A stretch of 64,000 bases of DNA. Source: an uncultured Bacteroidales bacterium. Its GTDB lineage: Bacteria; Bacteroidota; Bacteroidia; Bacteroidales; P3. Below, one piece after another: positions 3,636 through 64,000 of the stretch (position 1 is the first letter of the stretch; every line of letters begins with the position of its first letter). The notes under the pieces are model-generated. The model ran no database searches and was not told the origin of the DNA. It worked only from the letters and a program-made list of their open reading frames with translations. Location: assembly GCA_905233895.1 (NCBI GenBank), contig CAJOFL010000019.1:1799-65798 (forward strand), given 5' to 3'. The position numbers and the translations under genes were made by a program.

Positions 3636-4406
3636 ATGGGAAAAATAATTGCAATAGCCAACCAGAAAGGCGGCGTGGGCAAGACTACGACAGCCGTCAA
3701 CCTCTCGGCTTCGCTTGCCGTGCTCGAGAAGAAGGTTCTCTTGGTGGATTGTGACCCGCAGGCCAACGCCACCTCCGGTCTCGGCATCGACCCCGACAGC
3801 CTAGAGAAGAGCGTCTACGAATGCATCCTCGGCCAGGCCAATGTCGCCGACATCATTGTCGAGACCGACACGCCCAACCTCGACCTTGTTCCAACCCGCA
3901 TCGACCTTGTCGGTGCCGAGGTGGAACTTATCAACGAGAAGGGTCGCGAAAGTTTCCTTGCTCGAGCCCTTGATACAGTCAAGGATCGCTATGATTTTGT
4001 CATTATAGACTGCTCGCCCTCGCTCGGACTTATAACCATCAACGCCCTTACGGCTGCCGACTCGGTGATTATCCCTATTCAGAGCGAGTACTTCGCCCTC
4101 GAAGGGCTCGGCAAACTGCTCAATACTGTGCGTATTGTGCAGACCCGTCTTAACCCGCGCCTCTCAATAGAGGGCCTGCTCATCACCATGTACGATAACC
4201 GTCTGCGCCTGGCTCGCCAGGTGGTGGAGGATGTGCGTGGCCATTTCAAGGACATGGTGTTCGATACCCTTATCTTCCGCAACACCAAATTGGCCGAGGC
4301 TCCTTCCTATGGCAAGAGTATCATTATGCATGATGTCGCTTCGACTGGTGCTGTCAACTATCTCAACCTTGCCCAGGAAATCCTGCGGCGTAACAAAATG
4401 TTGTAA
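3636..4406 (+). CDS. parA: Chromosome partitioning ATPase ParA/Soj
   Basis: Deviant Walker A NQKGGVGKTTTAVNL, and family-typical sequence along the full length. Confidence 0.95.
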   Translation: MGKIIAIANQKGGVGKTTTAVNLSASLAVLEKKVLLVDCDPQANATSGLGIDPDSLEKSVYECILGQANVADIIVETDTPNLDLVPTRIDLVGAEVELINEKGRESFLARALDTVKDRYDFVIIDCSPSLGLITINALTAADSVIIPIQSEYFALEGLGKLLNTVRIVQTRLNPRLSIEGLLITMYDNRLRLARQVVEDVRGHFKDMVFDTLIFRNTKLAEAPSYGKSIIMHDVASTGAVNYLNLAQEILRRNKML

Positions 4407-4412
4407 AGACCT

Positions 4413-5288
4413 ATGGCAATCAAAAAGACAGGCGGACTGGGCCGCGGACTGGGCTCCATACTTCCCGACATCGACCTCGATGCCGCCAAAGGAGGCACAG
4501 TTGCCGCCGCCATCAGCGAGATACCCCTGGCCAAAATAACGGCCAACCCTTACCAGCCCCGCAAGGAGTTCGATGAGGAAGCCCTTGACGAGTTATCGCA
4601 GAGCATCCGCCAGCAGGGCGTCATAACCCCTATCACTGTGCGCCGTATGCCCGACGGCACCTACCAGATTATAGCCGGTGAGCGGCGTGTACGCGCTTCG
4701 CGTATGGCCGGTCTCAAGGAAATTCCGGCCTATATCCGTGTTGCTACCGACACGCAGATGATGGAGATGGCCCTTATTGAGAATATCCAGCGTTCCGACC
4801 TCAATGCGATGGAGGTGGCGTTGGGATACAAGGCCCTACTTGAGGAGTGCCGTCTCACTCACGACCAGCTTAGCGAAAGGGTGGGGAAGAACCGTTCCAC
4901 CATTACCAACTACCTCCGTCTGCTCAACCTCCCTGCCGAGACTCAGTTGGCTTTGAGCACTGATAAGATTAGCATGGCACATGCGCGTGCGTTGGCTGGC
5001 GTAGAGGATGTTGAGCGGCATCTGGAGATATTGCACCTCGTTATCGACCGTGGTCTCTCGGTCCACCAGACCGAGCAGATGGTGAAAACCGCCAAGCAGC
5101 CTGTGGCCAGGCCGGTGCAGCGACGTGGCGACCTGCCCAAGCAGCATACCGACGCCCGCGACCGTCTCAAGCAGCGCCTGCAGTCGGTGGTGGAAATCAA
5201 GCGTTCGCAGCGCGGCAAAGGCACTCTGACCATCGCCTTCAATTCCGATGCCGACTTCGAGCGCATAATGAAATTGCTGGAGAAGTGA
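4413..5288 (+). CDS. parB: Chromosome partitioning protein ParB/Spo0J
   Basis: ParB box IAGERRVRASRMAGL, an HTH region, and position immediately after parA. Confidence 0.95.
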   Translation: MAIKKTGGLGRGLGSILPDIDLDAAKGGTVAAAISEIPLAKITANPYQPRKEFDEEALDELSQSIRQQGVITPITVRRMPDGTYQIIAGERRVRASRMAGLKEIPAYIRVATDTQMMEMALIENIQRSDLNAMEVALGYKALLEECRLTHDQLSERVGKNRSTITNYLRLLNLPAETQLALSTDKISMAHARALAGVEDVERHLEILHLVIDRGLSVHQTEQMVKTAKQPVARPVQRRGDLPKQHTDARDRLKQRLQSVVEIKRSQRGKGTLTIAFNSDADFERIMKLLEK

Positions 5289-5812
5289 GCAGCCGAAGGG
5301 TCCATATAGGTCTAATAGGTCTTATAATTATATGTCTTATAGGGGCCCACAATCGTGTCTCCGCCCAGGAACATTCGGCCATGAAGGCCATGTGCTGGTC
5401 GTTGATTCCCGGCGGCGGACAGATTTATAACCATCAGGCGTGGAAGATCCCCATCATCTATGGCAGTTTTGCGGCGATGGGCTATTTCATCAACTACAAC
5501 TACCAGAAGATGGCGATGTTCAAGGAGGAATTCCTTTATCGCGAGAACCACAATGACATGCCCGCCCTCGAGGCCTATTCGTCATATCCCACCAGCAACA
5601 TCTACAGCCTCTACAATTCCTATAACCGAGATTTCCAACTTATGGTGATTATCACCGTGGGCATCTACGCGCTTAACCTGGTAGACGCCTATGTGTTCGG
5701 TCACCTGTTTGATTTCAGGGTCGATGACGATTTGAGTCTCAACCTCACCCCCTCGCTCGTGCCCGACCCGTCGGGATTCCACCCCTCGTTGGGGCTCACA
5801 TTCAGTTTCTAG
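5285..5812 (+). CDS. DUF5683 domain membrane protein
   Basis: Motif SLIPGGGQIYNHQAWKIPIIYG. GTG start at 5285 overlaps the parB stop. The N-terminal hydrophobic segment is encoded by a short tandem repeat (5306-5343). Confidence 0.7.
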   Translation: MSSRRVHIGLIGLIIICLIGAHNRVSAQEHSAMKAMCWSLIPGGGQIYNHQAWKIPIIYGSFAAMGYFINYNYQKMAMFKEEFLYRENHNDMPALEAYSSYPTSNIYSLYNSYNRDFQLMVIITVGIYALNLVDAYVFGHLFDFRVDDDLSLNLTPSLVPDPSGFHPSLGLTFSF

Positions 5813-5851
5813 CAAATAACAGAAAAAATAACAAAATAACACATTCAAGCA

Positions 5852-6542
5852 ATGATCAAACATCTTCTTTTCCTGCAGGCCGACCCGGCCACAACCATCG
5901 ACACCCTTGCTGGCGCCGTAACCACCTCGTCGCCCGAGCGCGTCACCCTCTGGGATATGGCCCTCAACGGCGGCTGGATTATGCTTCTGCTGGCCCTGCT
6001 ACTGGTGCTGGCAATCTACATCTTCATCGAGCGCTACCTCACCCTCAACGGTGCCTTGAAGGGCAAGGAGGACAGTGAGTTTATGGAGCGCATCCGCCAG
6101 TATGTCCATGAGGGCAATGTCGATGGTGCGCGCCAGCTGGCCAAAGAGACCGCCACCCCGCTTGGCCGTATGATAAGCAAGGGCTTCTCGCGCCTGGGCC
6201 GTCCGTTGCCCGACATCCAGGCCGCTATAGAGAACGAAGGCCAACTTGAAGTGGCCAACCTCGAGAAGCATGTCTCGCTTGTGGCTACCGTGGCCTCGCT
6301 CGGCCCGATGATTGGTTTCCTCGGTACCGTGGTGGGTATGAGCCTATGCTGGCAACAACATCGACATTCAGATGCTCGCCTCGGGTATCTACACCGCTAT
6401 GGTGACAACCGTGGGTGGCCTTATCGTCGGTATCGTGTGCTACTTCCTCAACAACCTGCTGGTCAACCGTATCAACAAGGTCGTTTTCGAGCTTGAGGTG
6501 CGCGCCAACGAGTTTATGGACCTCCTGCACGAGCCGGCATAA
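5852..6542 (+). pseudogene. exbB: MotA/TolQ/ExbB proton-channel protein, frame-disrupted at about 6341
   Basis: The frame from 5852 is family-like up to LGPMIGFLGTVVGM (6340). It then becomes unrelated sequence ending at 6496. The frame from 6342 gives AYAGNNIDIQMLASGIYTAMVTTVGGLIVGIVCYF...EFMDLLHEPA with a stop at 6540-6542. Total span is 691 nt (3n+1). Confidence 0.8.
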
Positions 6543-6597
6543 TGCCTGATTGCCTTGCCCTAAAAGTCCTTAAAGTCCTTAATGCCTTTAATGTACT

Positions 6598-7014
6598 ATG
6601 ATTAGAAGTCAAAATAAAATAAAGGTAGAGACCAACTCGTCGAGCATGAGCGACCTGGTGTTCCTGTTGCTTATCTTCTTCATGATAACGTCGACGCTCA
6701 TCAGCCCCAACGCCGTCAAACTGCTGCTGCCCGAGAGCAACAGCAAGACGATGGCCCGCGAGACGGTTACGGTCTATATCGACGAGAACCATAATTTCTT
6801 TGTCGACAACGACGTGCCTATAGCGGTCGACGAACTGGAGTCGTTTATTCGCACCAGTATCGGCACCGAGGTTGACGATGCCTGTGTCACCCTGAGGGCC
6901 GACAAGAATGTGCCGGTGCAGGATGTGGTGCAGGTGATTGATGCCGTCAACAGCATCAATGCCTCGACAGGCGCGAAACACAAGGTTATCCTCGCAACAT
7001 CACCCAAGCAATGA
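6598..7014 (+). CDS. exbD: Biopolymer transport protein ExbD/TolR
   Basis: 138 aa. Motif SSMSDLVFLLLIFFMITST plus an ExbD periplasmic domain. Lies between exbB and tonB. Confidence 0.9.
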   Translation: MIRSQNKIKVETNSSSMSDLVFLLLIFFMITSTLISPNAVKLLLPESNSKTMARETVTVYIDENHNFFVDNDVPIAVDELESFIRTSIGTEVDDACVTLRADKNVPVQDVVQVIDAVNSINASTGAKHKVILATSPKQ

Positions 7015-7735
7015 ACAACAAGTTTATATCGGGTATATGCACCGCGGTAATCATGCTTCTGGTTGCCCTGGTGCTCATATCCTTCGGTTATGACCCGCCC
7101 GACCCGCCGATACCCGAAGAGGGTGTCGAGGTGAATATCGGCAACAGCGACTTCGGCAGTGGCGACGACCCTCAGCCGGCCAGTGAGCCGGTGCAGCAGA
7201 CGGCTGCCGCAAGCCCCAATCGTATTGCCACCCAGAACAGCGAGCCCACTCCGTCGCTCGACGCCAGTCAGAACCAGGGCAATACCGTGGCTCCGCAGCC
7301 TGCCGAGCAGCCTGTGGCCATGCCCAAAGAGCCGGAAATCAACCGCAATGCCCTCTTCCCCGGCAGGCGCAACCAATCGAGCGGAAGCGGCAGCCAGGGG
7401 CAGTCGACCGGCAGTGGCGACCAAGGGAAGCCCAATGGTACGCAGACTAGCAACAACTACAACGGCAACGGTGGCGGCAACGGCAACTTCTCGCTTGCCG
7501 GCCGCAGCAGTGTGGCTCTCCCGCGTCCGGAGTATAGCTCGAACAATCAGGGCACCGTGGTGGTGTCGATTTGGGTCGACCGTCAGGGTAAGGTGACGCG
7601 CGCCGAGTACAAAAAATTCTTGGAGATGACATCGTCAGCCAGGCCATAAGCGCAGCCCGCAAGGCCCGCTTCAACGCCGATGCCGCCGCTCCTGAGGAAC
7701 AGAAGGGCACCATCACTTATATCTTCAAGATATGA
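7011..7735 (+). pseudogene. tonB: Energy transducer TonB-family protein, frameshifted at an A6 run (7611-7616)
   Basis: N-terminal TM segment, Pro/Gly/Ser/Asn-rich linker, then the start of the TonB C-domain GTVVVSIWVDRQGKVTRAEY. The in-frame stop is at 7647. After the A run, another frame reads KILGDDIVSQAISAARKARFNADAAAPEEQKGTITYIFKI with a stop at 7733-7735. Span is 725 nt (3n+2). Confidence 0.75.
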
Positions 7736-8103
7736 GGCTCGACAAGTACCTCTGGGCCGTGCGCCTCTACAAGACACGTTCTCTCGCAGCCGAGGCCTGC
7801 CAATGTGGCAAGGTTACCATGACGGCCGACGGACGTGAACTTAAGCCTGCGCACGACGTGAAGGTTGGCGAGCGCTATAGCCTCAATATCGACCAGCTTC
7901 ACAAGGAGGTAGAGGTACTTGCATTGCCGCCCAACCGCGTGGGAGCACCGCTGGTGCAGGGCTTCATGATTGACCGTACCCCCCAGGAGGAATACGAGCG
8001 CATACAGATGGCGCGCCAGTATGCCTTCGAGAAACGCGACCGTGGAGTGGGTCGCCCCACCAAGCGCGACCGCCGCGACATAGAGCGTTTCAAATACGAA
8101 TAA
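7732..8103 (+). CDS. hslR: S4-domain RNA-binding heat-shock protein 15 (HslR-like)
   Basis: MRLDKYLWAVRLYKTRSLA S4 motif, 123 aa. ATGA overlap with the tonB stop in the shifted frame. Confidence 0.85.
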   Translation: MRLDKYLWAVRLYKTRSLAAEACQCGKVTMTADGRELKPAHDVKVGERYSLNIDQLHKEVEVLALPPNRVGAPLVQGFMIDRTPQEEYERIQMARQYAFEKRDRGVGRPTKRDRRDIERFKYE

Positions 8104-8178
8104 AAGGTAATTTTCCGAAAAAATAAATATTTTTCCTGGAAAGATTGCAATAAATCAATTCTTCGCAGTACAAATACA

Positions 8179-8736
8179 TTGAACTCGAGCCGAGTGGAAG
8201 AGAAAGAAATAGTAGAGGCCGTGCTGGCCGGCAAGACCGAGCTTTACGCCGAGATTGTCAAACGCTATCAGCAGATAGTGGCAAACCTGACTTACAAGCT
8301 CTGTGGCAACAAACTGGAAGTGGAGGAAGTGACCCAGCAGGTCTTCGTCGAGCTCTATACCGCCCTGCCGCGATTCCGCTTCGACTCGAAGTTGAGCTCT
8401 TTCATCTACAGCATCACCGTCAACGTCGTCTGCAAGATGATGGGCCGGCAGCGCCGGTTCGTCTCCTCCGACAGACAAGATGACGACGACTACCGCCCCG
8501 AGACGCCCTCGCCCGACCTCAACGTGGAGCAGCAGATTATCCGCCAGGAACAGCTCGCCCAGCTCCGCGCAGCCATCGGACGGCTCAAGAGCGAACAGCG
8601 CACCGCGCTGGTGCTCTACACCTACGAGGACTTCTCCTACCTGCAGATAGCCGAGGTGATGCAGTGCAGTCTGAGCAAAGTGGAAAGCCTGATTTTCCGC
8701 GCAAAGAAGAACTTGGCAAAAGAACTGAAACAATGA
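8179..8736 (+). CDS. RNA polymerase ECF-type sigma-70 factor
   Basis: Region 2 (QQVFVELYTALPRFRFDSKLSSFIYSITVN) and region 4 (ALVLYTYEDFSYLQIAEVMQCSLSKVESLIFRAKKNL). The start is ambiguous: TTG at 8179 or GTG at 8194. Confidence 0.9.
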   Translation: MNSSRVEEKEIVEAVLAGKTELYAEIVKRYQQIVANLTYKLCGNKLEVEEVTQQVFVELYTALPRFRFDSKLSSFIYSITVNVVCKMMGRQRRFVSSDRQDDDDYRPETPSPDLNVEQQIIRQEQLAQLRAAIGRLKSEQRTALVLYTYEDFSYLQIAEVMQCSLSKVESLIFRAKKNLAKELKQ

Positions 8737-9053
8737 CAATAGACGAAGGATTGAACGAGCTGGCTCGCCAGCAGTACCCACATCAGGTGGATGTCGTACA
8801 GGCCGTTATGGCCCAGGTGCGGCAGCATCCTTACCTGCAGCCCGTGCGCCGAGTGCAGACCTGGCAGCGGGTCGTGTCGTCTTCGGTGGCCGCCGTCCTG
8901 CTGGCACTGGTCGTCAGCGTCACGGTGGTGCGCATCCAGGCCTACAACGAGGCCGGCATCGGCTCGATGATAGCGCAGGTGCAGGACTACAACTACTACG
9001 GCTCGGTAGAGGAGGCTGCCATGAACCCCATTGAATACATCTACGAAGAATAA
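8733..9053 (+). CDS. Putative anti-sigma factor (single-pass membrane protein)
   Basis: ATGA overlap with the sigma gene stop. Short cytoplasmic N-terminus followed by a TM segment VAAVLLALVVSVTVV. Function is inferred from context only. Confidence 0.5.
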   Translation: MTIDEGLNELARQQYPHQVDVVQAVMAQVRQHPYLQPVRRVQTWQRVVSSSVAAVLLALVVSVTVVRIQAYNEAGIGSMIAQVQDYNYYGSVEEAAMNPIEYIYEE

Positions 9054-9060
9054 GAACGCT

Positions 9061-9501
9061 ATGAATATCAAGAGTATAATACTTGCCGTCGCCCTGGTCG
9101 CAGTGGCTGTTCCCTGTGCCGCCCAGCGCGATTCCCGTGCGCGGCATGACGAACGCAAGCCCAAGGAGATAACCGAGATGGTGGGCGACCTCAGCCAGTC
9201 GCAGAAGAAACGTCTCGACGATATCACCGACGCCTCGAAGCAGCGCGTCGCCGCCCTTCGTGCCCAGAAGAAGGCTGTGCGCGACAGCATCAACACCTAT
9301 ATGCGGCTCGACGGCGACCAGTCGGCCGTCCTCTTCCCGCTCTTCGACCGCGAAGCACAGCTGCAGCGCGAAATCTCGCGCGAGATGTACACCACCAAGG
9401 TACGGGTCGACGAGGTGCTCACCCCCGAACAGCGCAAACAACTGCGCCAGGCATCGGACGCTAAGCGGAGCGACCCGCCCAAGAAGAAACTCAAAAAGTA
9501 G
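9061..9501 (+). CDS. Periplasmic Spy/CpxP-like (LTXXQ-motif) protein
   Basis: Signal peptide MNIKSIILAVALVAVAVPCAAQ, helical charged body, LTPEQRKQL motif. The internal ATG at 9061 is preferred over 9031. Confidence 0.5.
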   Translation: MNIKSIILAVALVAVAVPCAAQRDSRARHDERKPKEITEMVGDLSQSQKKRLDDITDASKQRVAALRAQKKAVRDSINTYMRLDGDQSAVLFPLFDREAQLQREISREMYTTKVRVDEVLTPEQRKQLRQASDAKRSDPPKKKLKK

Positions 9502-9514
9502 CCAATCCCACATC

Positions 9515-9543
9515 GAAGCCCTCCACGAGGGCTTCTTTTTTTT
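9515..9543 (+). terminator. Rho-independent terminator
   Basis: Perfect 9-bp stem GAAGCCCTC / GAGGGCTTC, loop CAC, followed by a T8 run. Confidence 0.85.
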
Positions 9544-9599
9544 CATTGGGATACCGGTATTTTATTCAAAACGAAAATTTATTTCTGTAGGGGGAAAGT

Positions 9600-9778
9600 A
9601 GGCGTTGATCAGGCGTTGGTCAGGCGTTGATCAGGCGAAGGTAGGGTAAACGTGTTGTGAATTAGGATGTTATAATGCCATTTTTAAAAACTCATTAAGA
9701 TTTGTTAACGAAAAAGTGTTAAGAAATGTTAAATTTAACACTTCCCACAATGGCTGGGCGGCGGATATATTTTATATA
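9600..9778 (+). repeat. Modular intergenic repeat, copy 2 (A-type tail). Core is 9600-9647.
   Basis: Same unit order as copy 1 (GATC, GGTC, GATC), then AGGCGAAGGTAGGGT. The tail is collinear with 122-255. Confidence 0.85.
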
Positions 9779-9836
9779 AATACCGACGGCCGAAAGGCTG
9801 TCCATCGGCGTGAAATTCACAAAAAAAAACATTTTT

Positions 9837-9867
9837 TTTGCCAGTATAAAAAAAGTTCGTATCTTTG
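9837..9867 (+). promoter_or_regulatory. Bacteroidota sigma-A promoter: -33 TTTG (9837-9840) and -7 TATCTTTG (9860-9867)
   Basis: Both consensus boxes are present with a 19-nt spacer, 44 nt upstream of the ATG at 9911. Confidence 0.75.
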
Positions 9868-9910
9868 CACTCAAATTTGGAATAAATAAAATAAAACTAA
9901 AATAACAACA

Positions 9911-10609
9911 ATGAAAGGCAAAACAATCATCCAGATCGTGCTCGGCGTGGTCATTATTGCCCTCGCCATCGTGCTCTACAACAGCATCATGAAACCTGTG
10001 CGTTTCGACAACGAGTACAACAAGCGTCGCGACGCCTGCGCCGAGAAACTCAAAGCCATCCGTACCCTCGAGGAGGCCTACAAGATTACTTACGGTACCT
10101 ATTGCGGCAGTTTCGACACCCTCATTGGCCGCCTCATGACCGAGGATAGCATGAAGACCGTCATCAAGGTCACGAACTACGACAAGATTCCCGCCGACGT
10201 CGACATCAACGAGGTGCCCGAAAAGGAGGCTATCGAGAAGGGTTACATGACCCGTCAGGAGGTCTTCGTGAACCCCATCGCCAAACTGCGTGAGGACGGC
10301 AAGTTGCCCATCATCGACGCCACTGGTCACACGGTGCAGATGACCGACGACCAGATTCGCAACGTCCGCTACGTTCCCTATCCCAAGGGAGAGAACAATG
10401 AGTTTGAACTTCAGGCCGGTATGCTTGAGAAGAGCGGCTTCTTTGTGCCCGTGTTCGAGTGCAAGGTCGACCTCAAGACCCTCCTGAGCGATATGGACCA
10501 CCAGTCTGTCGTCAACAAAATCGCCGAGGTCGAGAAGGTTGCCGGTCGTTATGCCGGTTGGAAAGTGGGTGATATGACCCAGGCTGTCACCGACGGTAAC
10601 TTCGAGTAA
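9911..10609 (+). CDS. Hypothetical N-terminally membrane-anchored protein
   Basis: 232-aa ORF with coding-like composition and an N-terminal TM segment IIQIVLGVVIIALAIVLY. No family recognised. Confidence 0.6.
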   Translation: MKGKTIIQIVLGVVIIALAIVLYNSIMKPVRFDNEYNKRRDACAEKLKAIRTLEEAYKITYGTYCGSFDTLIGRLMTEDSMKTVIKVTNYDKIPADVDINEVPEKEAIEKGYMTRQEVFVNPIAKLREDGKLPIIDATGHTVQMTDDQIRNVRYVPYPKGENNEFELQAGMLEKSGFFVPVFECKVDLKTLLSDMDHQSVVNKIAEVEKVAGRYAGWKVGDMTQAVTDGNFE

Positions 10610-59030: not shown

Positions 59031-59064
59031 GATAATTCTCAATTTTCAACTCTCAATTTTCAAT
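59031..59064. repeat. Right inverted repeat of the four-helix-bundle cassette
   Basis: ATAATTCTCAATTTTCAACTCTCAATTTTCAATT, 9 nt before the yebC ATG. Confidence 0.85.
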
Positions 59065-59072
59065 TTATAATT

Positions 59073-59783: not shown

Positions 59784-59916
59784 GCGAGCGCCCGAAAGCT
59801 TGCTTTCGAGGCCGAGCGACAGCCATGAGCACGAAGTGAATATGGGATAGGAGCGATCTGCGGTCAGCAGTTAGCGGTTAGCGGTCGGAAACTTTGTAAA
59901 TAAGTATAATTCAGAT

Positions 59917-60975
59917 ATGTATAAGAAATCATTACTGTTTTTTGCTCTCCTGTTTTCTTTGGCAGGCGTTACACATGCAACCGACTACATCAAGGAAGTG
60001 ATGGTCGTCGGTGGCAGCTCCAGCGAGGTCAACAACCTGAGAATCACCCTTGAGGCACAAGGCTGGACACGTATCAACAAAGATCTCAACGACAGATGTG
60101 GCGCTTCGAGCGACTACATTTATCTTTTCTACCGCGCGGAGAGCAACAACGACGGTGTCAACCGCGGCTATATCACCGACTTCTATATCAGCAACGCCAC
60201 AGGTACCGTCTCCAGCACCGTAACCCACGATGGGCGTACATATCATCTGGTGTCCTGTGACGGCAGCAATTATTTCAGAGGCCGCCAGGGCGACCTTAAC
60301 AGCCACGCAGGTGGCGCCACCATACACCTCTACTACACCACCGACCTCTTCCCCGACAACCGCGCCGTCACCTCCATCTCGTTCAACGACAGCCAGAGCG
60401 GCGCAGTGCCTGCCAACGGCTCTGGCTCGGGCTACGACCTGAATGATGGCTGTGGCTCTGGAACCGACTACATATACATGCATGTAGGCACCTCTACCGC
60501 CGTGCCGCCGACACTCACCGTCGCTGCCAACGACCCTTTGCTGGGCAGCGTGTCGGCAACAGGCTTCATCACTCCCGCCGAAACACTCCTCACGGTCATC
60601 ACCCCAACTGCCTCCTATCCCAATCTACAGTATTCTGAATCCGGCAGGGCTACACTCAACCTCTCCGGATTTCTCAGCATCAACCAAAGCGGAGCATGGT
60701 CCAACTCCAGCGGCTTAGGTGGAATAAATATGCTCGGACATCTTGAGGTTACCGCCAACGAAGGGTATACCGTAACCCGTATCACCTTCAACGTGGGACA
60801 ACCTGCGAACAACTACAGCAACCCCATTGAAATAGCCCAGCCACCTTTCCTTATCGATATTGAAGGCGGTGACTGTTTTCTCAATAACGGTAATCAGTAT
60901 GTCGGCTACCATGGCGTCACCTCGATCAACGTCTATGGTTACCTCACCCCAGTCGACCAAGGGAATGTCACCTAG
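59917..60975 (+). CDS. N-terminal segment of a giant secreted repeat protein, ended by an in-frame TAG (60973-60975)
   Basis: Signal peptide MYKKSLLFFALLFSLAGVTHA. Three DLN-x-(A/C)G(G/S)-x-x-(Y)I(Y/H)(L/M) repeats, then the first copy of a module of about 204 aa. The same frame stays open from 60976 to 64000. Confidence 0.7.
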   Translation: MYKKSLLFFALLFSLAGVTHATDYIKEVMVVGGSSSEVNNLRITLEAQGWTRINKDLNDRCGASSDYIYLFYRAESNNDGVNRGYITDFYISNATGTVSSTVTHDGRTYHLVSCDGSNYFRGRQGDLNSHAGGATIHLYYTTDLFPDNRAVTSISFNDSQSGAVPANGSGSGYDLNDGCGSGTDYIYMHVGTSTAVPPTLTVAANDPLLGSVSATGFITPAETLLTVITPTASYPNLQYSESGRATLNLSGFLSINQSGAWSNSSGLGGINMLGHLEVTANEGYTVTRITFNVGQPANNYSNPIEIAQPPFLIDIEGGDCFLNNGNQYVGYHGVTSINVYGYLTPVDQGNVT

Positions 60976-61700
60976 GGCACCGTTTCCAACCTCTCGGCCA
61001 TGCCTGCCGCCAACTGCCACTTCATCGCATGGCGCGAGGCCGACACCATCTACAGCCGCTCGGCCGACACCGTTGCCACCATAACAGGCAACCGTTCATT
61101 CACAGCCATCTTCGCCATCGACACTTACTCTCTCGACCTCGCCGCCAGCGACCCCTCGCTGGGCAACGTGTCGTCAACATTCAACGCTCCCGAAGAAACA
61201 CTCCTCACGGTCATTACCCAAAATCCCAACTTATATTATCCAAGTCCTCAGTATTCCGAACCCGGCAGGGCTACACTCAGCTTCTCCGAATCTGTCGGCT
61301 TCACAAATGGAGCATGGAAAACATACTGCACTCTCAATTATACGTCGTACGGATATCTTGAGGTTACCGCCAACGAAGGGTATACCGTAACCCGTATCAC
61401 CTTCAACGTGGTAATACCTTCACACGGCAACCCCATTGAAATAGCCCAGCCACCTTTCAAGGTCAATTTTGTATGTGATGACTGTTATATCAATAACGGC
61501 AGTCAGGGTGTCGGCTACAATGGCGTCACCTCCATCAACGTCTATGGCTACCGCAACCCGGTCGACCACGGCACCGTCAACCACGGCACCGTCGCCAACC
61601 TCTCGGCCACGCCTGCCGCCAACTGCCACTTCGACGGCTGGCGCGAGGCCGACACCATCTACAGCCGCTCGGCCGACACCGTCGCCACCATTTCAAGCAA
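60740..61700 (+). repeat. Intragenic tandem duplication, period about 609-615 bp
   Basis: A 57-nt perfect repeat ATCTTGAGGTTACCGCCAACGAAGGGTATACCGTAACCCGTATCACCTTCAACGTGG occurs at 60740 and 61355. A near-identical block of about 90 nt starts at 60991 and 61600. A third, more diverged unit follows near 61940. Confidence 0.85.
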
Positions 61701-64000
61701 CCGCTCGTTCACAGCCCTCTTCGCCCTCGACACCCATACCGTCAGCGTTGCCGCCAACGACACCACGATGGGTGGCGCGGCTGTGACTGGCGTCGTCGAT
61801 ACACTCTCCGAGCGCCTCCTTACAGTCATCACTCCCGGCGGTTACACCGTCGCCGGTCGTGCCATACTCACCGCCAACCAAGACATATATGTTGCTGACG
61901 GCGGTTGGGAAGCTTATGGTGGCCCATTAAGATGTGGTGTACTGGAAGTGAACGCTGCCGAAGGCTACACCGTCACCCGCATCACATTCACCCTCACCGA
62001 GCCCTATGATGGCGTGGTATGCGAAATTGTCGACAACGCCCCCATACTCTCCAAAGCCGCCATTCCCTATGTATGGGCAGGTCTCAGCGGCCAATACGGC
62101 ACCGGCAAGGTCACCTCCATCAGCGTCTACGGCTACCGCAACCCAGCAATTGACCCGAGCGGCAGCATCTGCACCGCCGACCATGGCACCACCATAAACC
62201 TTACGGCCACGCCCAAGCCGGGCTACCACTTCGTGGAATGGCACGAGAACGACACCATCTATAGTAGCACGGCCGACACGACGGCCACCATCAATGGCGA
62301 CCGCTTCCTTGTCGCATTCTTTGCACCCGACACGCATGATGTCTTTGTCATCTGCAACGACACCTCTATGGGTGATGCAGGTGTTCTGGTTGTTACGCCG
62401 GGGGCGCCGGCTGCTACAATTGAGCCTTTCGCCGAGGTTGGACACGGTGTCACCATATCGATAACGGCTGTACCCAAGCCGGGCTATCGCTTCGTCGAAT
62501 GGCACGAGGACGACACCCTCTACAGCAGCGCGGCCGACACGGTGGTCACCGTCCTCGCCGACCGTTTCCTTGTTGCTATCTTCGCGCTGGACACCCACGA
62601 ATGGGTGGACATGGGCTTCGGCCTGCTGTGGGCCACCTGCAATGTCGGCGCCGACAACCCGTGGGACTACGGCGACTACTTCGCCTGGGGCGAGACGCAG
62701 CCGAAGAGCTCCTACAGCTGGGAGACATACATCTGGGGCGATAGCATCACATTCACGCGCTATACGCATACCAACGACATGCTACTTCCCGAAGACGATG
62801 CCGCCACCGCCAACTGGGGCGGCGACTGGCGCATGCCGACACGTTCGGAGTGGTACACACTTGTCACATCCAGCCTGTATACACGAACCTATGTTCCCAA
62901 CTATCAAGGCTCGGGAAGGAGCGGTATTGTTGTAACCTGTAGATATGGCCGATGCGAAGGTAACTCAATATTTCTTCCCTTTGCAGGACAAAAGCTATAT
63001 TCCTCCAGACAAGAAATAAACAAGGGTCACTACTTGTCTGGCATTCTTCAGACCGAACGTTTCGCTTACGGTGTAAAACTGGATGCCTCTACCTCTACCG
63101 TAATGTTTATCGAAGGGATAAACCGTCGTATTGGAGCCTCGGTTCGTGCAGTGCGTCAATATCCGACGTATACCGTCACATCCGTTAGCGGCAACGATAC
63201 TATGGGTAGTGTCACAGGCGATGGATTCTTCGTCCACGGTGAAACGGACTCACTGACGGCAACCCCTAACGCAGGCTATCATTTCGTCTGCTGGATGGAG
63301 GCGGACACGGTGTACAGCCGTACGGCGGACACCGTTGTTACCGTCACCGGCGACAGGAGCTTCACAGCCGTGTTCGCACCTGACATGGCCGATCTGGTTC
63401 TTACCAATGTCTCCTACACACGTTTCTCCCAGAATAAACTGCGAGTCGAATACCAATTCGTCAACCAGGGCGAAGTCGACTACACCGAAACCATTGGCTT
63501 CACGGTGTACCGCAATCACTACCGCGGTGAGGTTCTTGGCGGAGGTCCTCGGATGATTATTGATGAAGACATGCTTGCCTCGTCGGGCAACGTGGCCACA
63601 AGAAGTTACATTTTTTACAAGGCGCCAATCTGCAGCCTTGATCCTGAAGACAGCCTGGTTATTGCAATCAACGACATGGGTTTCGGAGTGGGCCATCATG
63701 CGGGTGCACAGCCCGAGAGGGATACGCTGAACAATATAGCCGTGCTGCACATCAACGACGTCTACCCCTATCGCCACGCATACAGCGTCGACGTGCAGGC
63801 GGCCTGCGACAGCCTCACCTGGATAGACGACAGCACCTACCGTGCCTCTACTGACACGGCCTTCATTACCGTTGTGCAGAACTACAACAGTACCCCATGC
63901 GACTCGATAGTCCGCCTCGACCTCACCATAAACCACAGTACAGCCGGCGACACCACCGCTGTGGTGTGCGACAGCCTCGCTTGGTACGGGGAGACATATA
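61000..64000 (+). CDS. Continuation (3'-partial) of the giant repeat protein: Listeria-Bacteroides (InlB B-type) repeats, a FISUMP/DUF1566-like domain, CDS-type modules
   Basis: The frame is open to the window end. It is absent from the track because it has no stop. Repeats ATP(K/A)(P/A)GYHF.(E/G)W...DT.YS..ADT..T...R.F.A.FA x5. WATCNVGADNPWDYGDYFAWGE...GGDWRMPTRSEW. CDSLTWIDDSTY...TPCDSIVRLDLTIN. The first in-frame ATG is at 61000, but the domain boundary argues for continuity with 59917-60972. Confidence 0.72.
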   Translation, partial: MPAANCHFIAWREADTIYSRSADTVATITGNRSFTAIFAIDTYSLDLAASDPSLGNVSSTFNAPEETLLTVITQNPNLYYPSPQYSEPGRATLSFSESVGFTNGAWKTYCTLNYTSYGYLEVTANEGYTVTRITFNVVIPSHGNPIEIAQPPFKVNFVCDDCYINNGSQGVGYNGVTSINVYGYRNPVDHGTVNHGTVANLSATPAANCHFDGWREADTIYSRSADTVATISSNRSFTALFALDTHTVSVAANDTTMGGAAVTGVVDTLSERLLTVITPGGYTVAGRAILTANQDIYVADGGWEAYGGPLRCGVLEVNAAEGYTVTRITFTLTEPYDGVVCEIVDNAPILSKAAIPYVWAGLSGQYGTGKVTSISVYGYRNPAIDPSGSICTADHGTTINLTATPKPGYHFVEWHENDTIYSSTADTTATINGDRFLVAFFAPDTHDVFVICNDTSMGDAGVLVVTPGAPAATIEPFAEVGHGVTISITAVPKPGYRFVEWHEDDTLYSSAADTVVTVLADRFLVAIFALDTHEWVDMGFGLLWATCNVGADNPWDYGDYFAWGETQPKSSYSWETYIWGDSITFTRYTHTNDMLLPEDDAATANWGGDWRMPTRSEWYTLVTSSLYTRTYVPNYQGSGRSGIVVTCRYGRCEGNSIFLPFAGQKLYSSRQEINKGHYLSGILQTERFAYGVKLDASTSTVMFIEGINRRIGASVRAVRQYPTYTVTSVSGNDTMGSVTGDGFFVHGETDSLTATPNAGYHFVCWMEADTVYSRTADTVVTVTGDRSFTAVFAPDMADLVLTNVSYTRFSQNKLRVEYQFVNQGEVDYTETIGFTVYRNHYRGEVLGGGPRMIIDEDMLASSGNVATRSYIFYKAPICSLDPEDSLVIAINDMGFGVGHHAGAQPERDTLNNIAVLHINDVYPYRHAYSVDVQAACDSLTWIDDSTYRASTDTAFITVVQNYNSTPCDSIVRLDLTINHSTAGDTTAVVCDSLAWYGETY

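Follow-up and report, generated by a model that had tools for sequence, protein, structure and literature searches.

A Probable Lineage-Private Nonsense Allele Interrupts a Giant Surface-Protein Gene in an Uncultured Bacteroidales Bacterium

Introduction

A stretch of 64,000 nucleotides from an uncultured Bacteroidales bacterium (assembly GCA_905233895.1, contig CAJOFL010000019.1, positions 1,799 to 65,798; hereafter the window, on contig C19) ends within a very long reading frame for a giant repeat protein, which is open except for one in-frame TAG. This codon raises a simple question: is it a nonsense mutation carried by the organism, an error of sequencing or consensus, the boundary between two genes, or a codon that is translated? 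The window belongs to a metagenome-assembled genome (MAG) of 2.34 Mb in 68 contigs, with 53% G+C and 97.8% completeness. The evidence presented here leads us to regard the TAG, with a probability of about 85%, as a real nonsense allele private to this lineage, in a gene for a giant type IX secretion system (T9SS) surface protein. A nonsense mutation of recent date was the first option listed in the initial annotation of the window, which was made from the sequence alone, and it is the one favored by the presence of TAT at the site in seven other metagenome runs, of TAG, in the probable source run, on a contig without a break, and of normal decoding in this genome.

A Single Stop in a Giant Reading Frame

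Frame 1 begins with the ATG at 59917, and both its translation and the sequence itself show a sole stop before the window end, the TAG at 60973–60975, which is codon 353. The initial annotation had described the frame in the same way, and the peptide strings that it quoted match the sequence exactly. On the full contig, the same frame remains free of stops after the TAG for 1,134 codons, up to C19:66178; given the frequency of stop triplets in the window (0.032), the chance of such a run is ~1.6e-16.

The TAG falls in the first of three tandem units of ~210 residues. In their DNA, copies 1 and 2 share 81% identity by alignment (79% by BLAST), which bears out the statement that the stop lies within a duplicated unit, and the residue aligned with it is a histidine in copies 2 and 3, in agreement with the histidine reported earlier for the next copy. 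When the protein is read through the stop, the Pfam family Flg_new_2 matches residues 340–401 of the open reading frame (ORF) (profile positions 10–71 of 73, 28.4 bits for a cut-off of 23.6). The TAG, at residue 353, is therefore within a domain, as had been claimed. The boundary of this domain was taken from the coordinates of the Pfam profile because the AlphaFold2 model of the 352-residue product could not place it: residues ~21–190 are modeled with a predicted local distance difference test (pLDDT) score above 90, and residues 219–352 with one below 50. The features of the locus are gathered in Table 1.

Table 1. Features of the interrupted gene, in window coordinates
Feature	Coordinates	Strand	Remarks
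Predicted Sec signal peptide, MYKKSLLFFALLFSLAGVTHA	59917..59979	+	No lipobox Cys; read by eye; conserved in the homolog P0053
5' gene fragment, 352 codons plus TAG	59917..60975	+	Signal-peptide-like N-terminus, beta-prism-like module, and the part of repeat unit 1 that ends a third of the way into its B-repeat
N-terminal module, ~180 aa, residues 22–200	59980..60516	+	AlphaFold2 pLDDT >90, Foldseek matches, 495 homologs
Repeat unit, copy 1, residues 196–404	60502..61128	+	Beta-rich segment and InlB-type B-repeat; holds the TAG
In-frame TAG, codon 353	60973..60975	+	TAT (Tyr) in X2, X3, X4, X5, X9, X10, and X11; His in copies 2 and 3
Rest of the frame inside the window	60976..64000	+	Flg_new_2/Flg_new B-repeats, DUF1566-like segment, beginning of the array of ~50-aa tandem repeats with Cys
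ATG, 8 codons after the stop	61000..61002	+	Public gene calling starts a 1,126-aa ORF (P0001) here
Repeat unit, copy 2, residues 405–613	61129..61755	+	DNA 81% identical to copy 1
Repeat unit, copy 3, residues 614–830	61756..62406	+	More diverged

The Stop Codon in the Probable Source Sample

The metagenome run X1 (2019), which was read as Logan contigs and thus as an independent assembly, contains 82% of the words sampled from the region, and its contigs show zero differences from the window. It is probably the sample from which the MAG came. One of its contigs, 240 nt long (60820–61059), reproduces the window sequence including the TAG, is unbroken at the site, and shows no bubble there; its word depth is 10.6, as compared with 10.9 and 8.3 for the flanking contigs. 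The only other X1 contig that can be placed at the site is repeat copy 2. Since the contig is unbroken, X1 has no second allele abundant enough to make a branch. The recovery of the TAG at normal depth by another assembly argues against an error of the assembler or of the consensus.

The opposite explanation is that the organism has TAT, and that the G at 60975 entered the MAG as an error. The MAG is indeed a short-read metagenome assembly in 68 pieces, its contig is not error-free, as a 16-nt deletion further along this gene finds no support in the contigs of X1 (see following), and sampled words with the TAG are found in X1 only, so that a single run carries it. Against this, the Logan contig with the TAG is at the depth of its flanks (~10.6×) and without an alternative branch, a random error would not fill essentially all of ~10 reads, and the site is neither a homopolymer nor a repeat junction. 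We consider such an artifact improbable. The sequencing error that had been proposed at the outset is thus made unlikely by the contig at normal depth, if less firmly so at the level of the raw reads.

Alleles and Homologs at the Site

Position 60975 is a T, and the codon a TAT coding for tyrosine, in seven other runs (X2, X3, X9, X4, X10, X5, and X11). These come from at least five studies and are mostly labeled as bovine gut or bovine metagenomes. Over 303 bases, the allele of X2 shows only 10 differences from the window, and the codons on both sides of the site are the same (QGNVT-Y-GTVS). In X10, the allele lies on a single contig of 1,470 nt, which begins ahead of the start codon, at 59893, and extends to 61094; it is open across the reconstructed part. 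Because the codon is TAT in all seven runs and the X2 allele is nearly identical to that of the window, one is led to a single TAT-to-TAG transversion private to the lineage of the MAG.

An intact homolog of 2,671 residues (P0053), from a representative library clustered at 50% identity, shares 58% identity with the gene over the first 853 residues and aligns without interruption across the position of the TAG, where it has a proline. The comparison with strains and orthologs that had been suggested for this site thus finds relatives with a sense codon in an otherwise collinear gene. The nearly identical alleles themselves are known only from short Logan contigs. No close full-length ortholog was found: in one protein search the best match, the ORF of the window itself aside, had 42% identity; 60 related GTDB genomes share only generic B-repeats and one N-terminal module at 43% identity, and searches of genome and metagenome contigs returned the N-terminal module only, at 51–63% identity.

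These relatives also decide against two genuine genes, which the initial annotation had named as the finding that would overturn its reading. This possibility is refuted, as the homolog of 2,671 residues crosses the site and, on its single contig, the X10 frame has no stop between the start codon and the far side of the site. A first ORF of 351 residues in a genome of the same genus (G026:C13, L014:3569–4624, continuing at 4668–9092) bears a homologous N-terminal module; it was considered as an instance of such a pair and rejected: it has a frame change inside leucine-rich repeats (LRR) and a different architecture, and the likeness between its 351 residues and the 352 of the window fragment is a coincidence. 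In that genome, the frame changes within nearly identical LRR of the BspA type, after which over 1,475 further residues of the protein are encoded in another frame, probably through repeat misassembly or a real frameshift.

In a further run, X12, one contig ends at 60974 and another starts at 60979, exactly on either side of base 3 of the TAG codon. The site may be polymorphic in that sample.

Architecture of the Protein

The N-terminal module that follows the predicted signal peptide has 495 homologs in the representative library, most of which form the N-terminal part of proteins 1,000 to 3,000 residues long. These are mostly giant proteins from rumen or gut metagenomes, including MAGs labeled Prevotellaceae and Kiritimatiellae. 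The module has no match in Pfam or NCBIfam, and neither fragment of the gene as a whole has a match in NCBIfam. Foldseek matches its model with probabilities of 0.99 to 1.00 to MACPF proteins, namely Mpf2Ba1 (8b6v, 8b6u) and Plu-MACPF (2qp2). The matched portion of these proteins is presumably their beta-prism accessory domain (MABP-like). The module could merit an entry of its own as a new domain family.

Both B-repeat families exceed the Pfam gathering score, PF18998 with 136 bits in four stretches and PF09479 with 42 bits, and single copies score between 28 and 44 bits. Downstream of the ~210-residue units, each of which closes with an InlB-type B-repeat, come more B-repeats of the Flg_new_2 and Flg_new families, a DUF1566-like segment, and an array of Cys-containing repeats of ~50 residues. 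P0053 has the module order of the window gene, as well as the Cys-repeat array, a YDG-like region, and a T9SS tail; it differs in being uninterrupted and in having more copies of the Cys repeat. Its C-terminus matches Por_Secre_tail with 25.1 bits, just below the cut-off of 27.

The 3' End of the Gene

The end of another contig of the MAG (G000:C41:30488–31372, minus strand) codes for 295 residues that continue the P0053-like sequence and include a Por_Secre_tail domain (PF18962) with 31.7 bits, above the cut-off of 27. By collinearity with P0053, this part starts ~5 residues past the end of C19. The genome also encodes the T9SS translocon protein SprA, in an open frame of 2,378 residues on contig C4 (SprA_N, 538 bits). 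The predicted signal peptide, the shared homolog, the sorting domain on C41, and the presence of SprA thus all point to one gene of ~2,350 codons for a cargo protein of the T9SS. C19 and C41 should hence be scaffolded together.

The frame shows a second disruption. At C19:66156/66157 (L015:857–858), ~358 nt past the window end, 16 nt are missing relative to the next copy of the repeat. Because of this deletion the frame ends at C19:66178, beyond which the same protein is encoded in a different frame up to the contig end. The contigs of X1 do not span the deletion junction, whereas the undeleted form (L015:962–1079) is one unbroken contig, with a depth of 27.8 that is near the sum of its two feeder contigs (12.2 and 14). 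Such a doubled depth suggests that the true genome holds the undeleted form twice and that the frameshift is likely to be an artifact. It probably arose in the assembly of the MAG, although Logan contigs have gaps near other repeats too. In the ~2,000 codons downstream of the TAG there is no other confirmed lesion, and the nonsense mutation is therefore probably recent.

Hence, the gene appears split in the MAG for three distinct reasons: a private nonsense mutation, a doubtful deletion of 16 nt, and a contig break. The finding bears chiefly on annotation: the ORFs of 352 and 1,126 residues are fragments of a single T9SS cargo gene of ~2,350 codons and should not be annotated as separate proteins.

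Probable Consequences for the Protein

Cargo proteins of the T9SS require an N-terminal signal peptide and a C-terminal domain to be translocated across the outer membrane (PMC8545088, PMC5445135). The course of events best supported by the sequence is the following. A G-for-T transversion in the lineage of the MAG turned the tyrosine codon TAT into TAG at codon 353. Release factor 1 (RF1) terminates translation there, which would produce a fragment of 352 residues that keeps the signal peptide, ends inside a B-repeat, and misses the sorting domain. The remaining ~2,000 codons would keep the sorting domain without a signal peptide, even if translation restarted at the ATG at 61000. Neither piece would then reach the cell surface by way of the T9SS, and the gene would be a young pseudogene. 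We infer from this arrangement that surface display is lost, and the allele is most likely null.

Several points weigh against this reading. The evidence from X1 consists of assembled contigs and not of a read pile-up, so a minority TAT allele may be present in the sample, and X1, being probably the source run, gives a check on the assembler that still shares its sequencing with the MAG. The join between C19 and C41 is one that we infer from homology, without overlapping sequence. The functional consequence is predicted from what is generally known of T9SS export. A metatranscriptome (X15) gave at this place only short pieces from other organisms.

The ATG Downstream of the Stop

Could the two halves nevertheless work as separate cistrons? 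In this explanation, translation stops at the TAG and re-initiates at the ATG at 61000, 24 nt further on, giving an exported protein of 352 residues with the beta-prism module and a second protein of at least 1,126 residues. The codon at 61000 is ACG (threonine) in all seven other runs, and copies 2 and 3 of the repeat likewise have a threonine there. Both the stop and the ATG are thus private to the MAG lineage, and the two changes are 26 nt apart. Only 1 of the 90 single substitutions in the 10 codons past the stop makes an in-frame ATG, and at 3.3% divergence ~0.01 such events are expected by chance, by a rough count made after the fact. Public gene calling also places the start of P0001 at this codon.

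The coincidence was, however, spotted post hoc, and a change between methionine and threonine is a conservative polymorphism. The downstream product would start MPAANCHFIAWREAD and lack a signal peptide, so that its sorting domain would be useless, and the upstream product stops a third into its B-repeat domain; the split has no counterpart in any intact relative. We also considered whether the downstream ORF has an internal promoter or a signal peptide of its own and rejected this, as the sequence upstream of the ATG is GC-rich and free of TAnnTTTG-like motifs and the N-terminus lacks hydrophobic character (both read by eye). A functional split of the gene is for these reasons very unlikely.

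We grant as little credit to the idea that selection played a part, be it on the stop and the ATG as a pair, in a two-cistron gene releasing the beta-prism module as a binding protein that is free in the periplasm or secreted, or on the loss itself, e.g., as an escape from a phage or a protozoal predator using the protein as its receptor.

Decoding of TAG

TAG is a normal stop in this genome, and there is no change in its genetic code. Among the 45 tRNAs identified by ARAGORN, which also found the tmRNA, none has a CUA anticodon. The gene of RF1, prfA, scores 508 bits, above the curated cut-off, and has no internal stop. TAG closes 270 (19%) of the 1,386 open frames of at least 300 codons. Within the window, the TAG codons at 5810, 9499, 35222, and 13709 of the minus strand each close an open frame between 158 and 1,158 codons long, as one would expect of the ordinary stops that the initial annotation took them to be. 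Its reluctance to invoke reassignment is well founded, given the presence of RF1 and the lack of a suppressor tRNA.

Pairs of long open frames separated by a single stop were also counted throughout the genome (TAG 59, TAA 108, TGA 53). This count was dropped as a test of recoding because neighboring genes often share a frame, which makes it uninformative.

To our knowledge, a basal near-cognate read-through of UAG occurs in all bacteria, and the frame is intact for ~2,000 codons past the stop. Nevertheless, a programmed read-through or recoding of UAG (by a suppressor tRNA, by pyrrolysine, or through its context) that yields the full-length protein is scarcely credible when no CUA tRNA exists, RF1 is intact, TAG ends 19% of long frames, and relatives encode a tyrosine where programmed recoding would require a conserved stop. 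The in-frame UAG is indeed all that the gene has in common with systems of UAG reassignment or pyrrolysine insertion, from which it differs by the absence of the CUA tRNA, the retention of RF1, the frequent use of TAG as a stop, and the sense codon of the relatives. As far as decoding is concerned, nothing new is learned from this locus.

On the plus strand of contig C27 of the MAG, two other giant frames, of 2,006 and 1,511 codons, end with a single TAA (at 9460 and 23695) and are followed, in the same frame, by similar repeats that are 56% and 30% identical to those upstream. These may be adjacent paralogs or further interrupted giant genes.

Comparison with Known Systems

A private nonsense allele that knocks out a gene is of a kind already known and is ordinary biology. 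The closest known parallel is the family of premature-stop-codon (PMSC) alleles of inlA in Listeria monocytogenes. As the abstracts of the reports on these alleles have it, complemented by general knowledge of the mechanism, the stop cuts the C-terminal anchor off from the export signal at the N-terminus, and the protein is no longer displayed (PMC5131979, PMC12427964). As described there, these are also natural, strain-specific nonsense mutations in a large repeat surface protein with B-repeats of the internalin type. The differences are that inlA, in another phylum, relies on an LPXTG sortase anchor and the window protein on a C-terminal T9SS domain, that the latter has no LRR, and that the window allele is known from one sample whereas PMSC alleles recur in many lineages.

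The cargo proteins of type A of the T9SS (e.g., gingipains and giant adhesins similar to SprB) offer the other comparison. The window gene shares with them a predicted N-terminal signal peptide, the Por_Secre_tail domain, the giant repeats, and the secretion machinery encoded in the genome. It departs from them by its beta-prism-like module, by its ~210-residue units, for which there is no Pfam model, and by being interrupted and spread over two contigs. The locus also provides a clean case of the probable loss of a giant surface protein at the strain level in a rumen commensal, and such losses are common, and to be expected, for fast-evolving genes of the adhesin type.

A Highly Abundant Short Repeat Nearby

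Upstream of the interrupted gene, at 59032–59066 and downstream of a small AT-rich gene for a four-helix bundle, lies the sequence AATTCTCAATTTTCAACTCTCAATTTTCAATT. Its word depth is ~4,000 to 10,000 in the four metagenomes tested, and it occurs with many different flanks on both sides, as an extremely abundant short repeat of rumen and gut communities.

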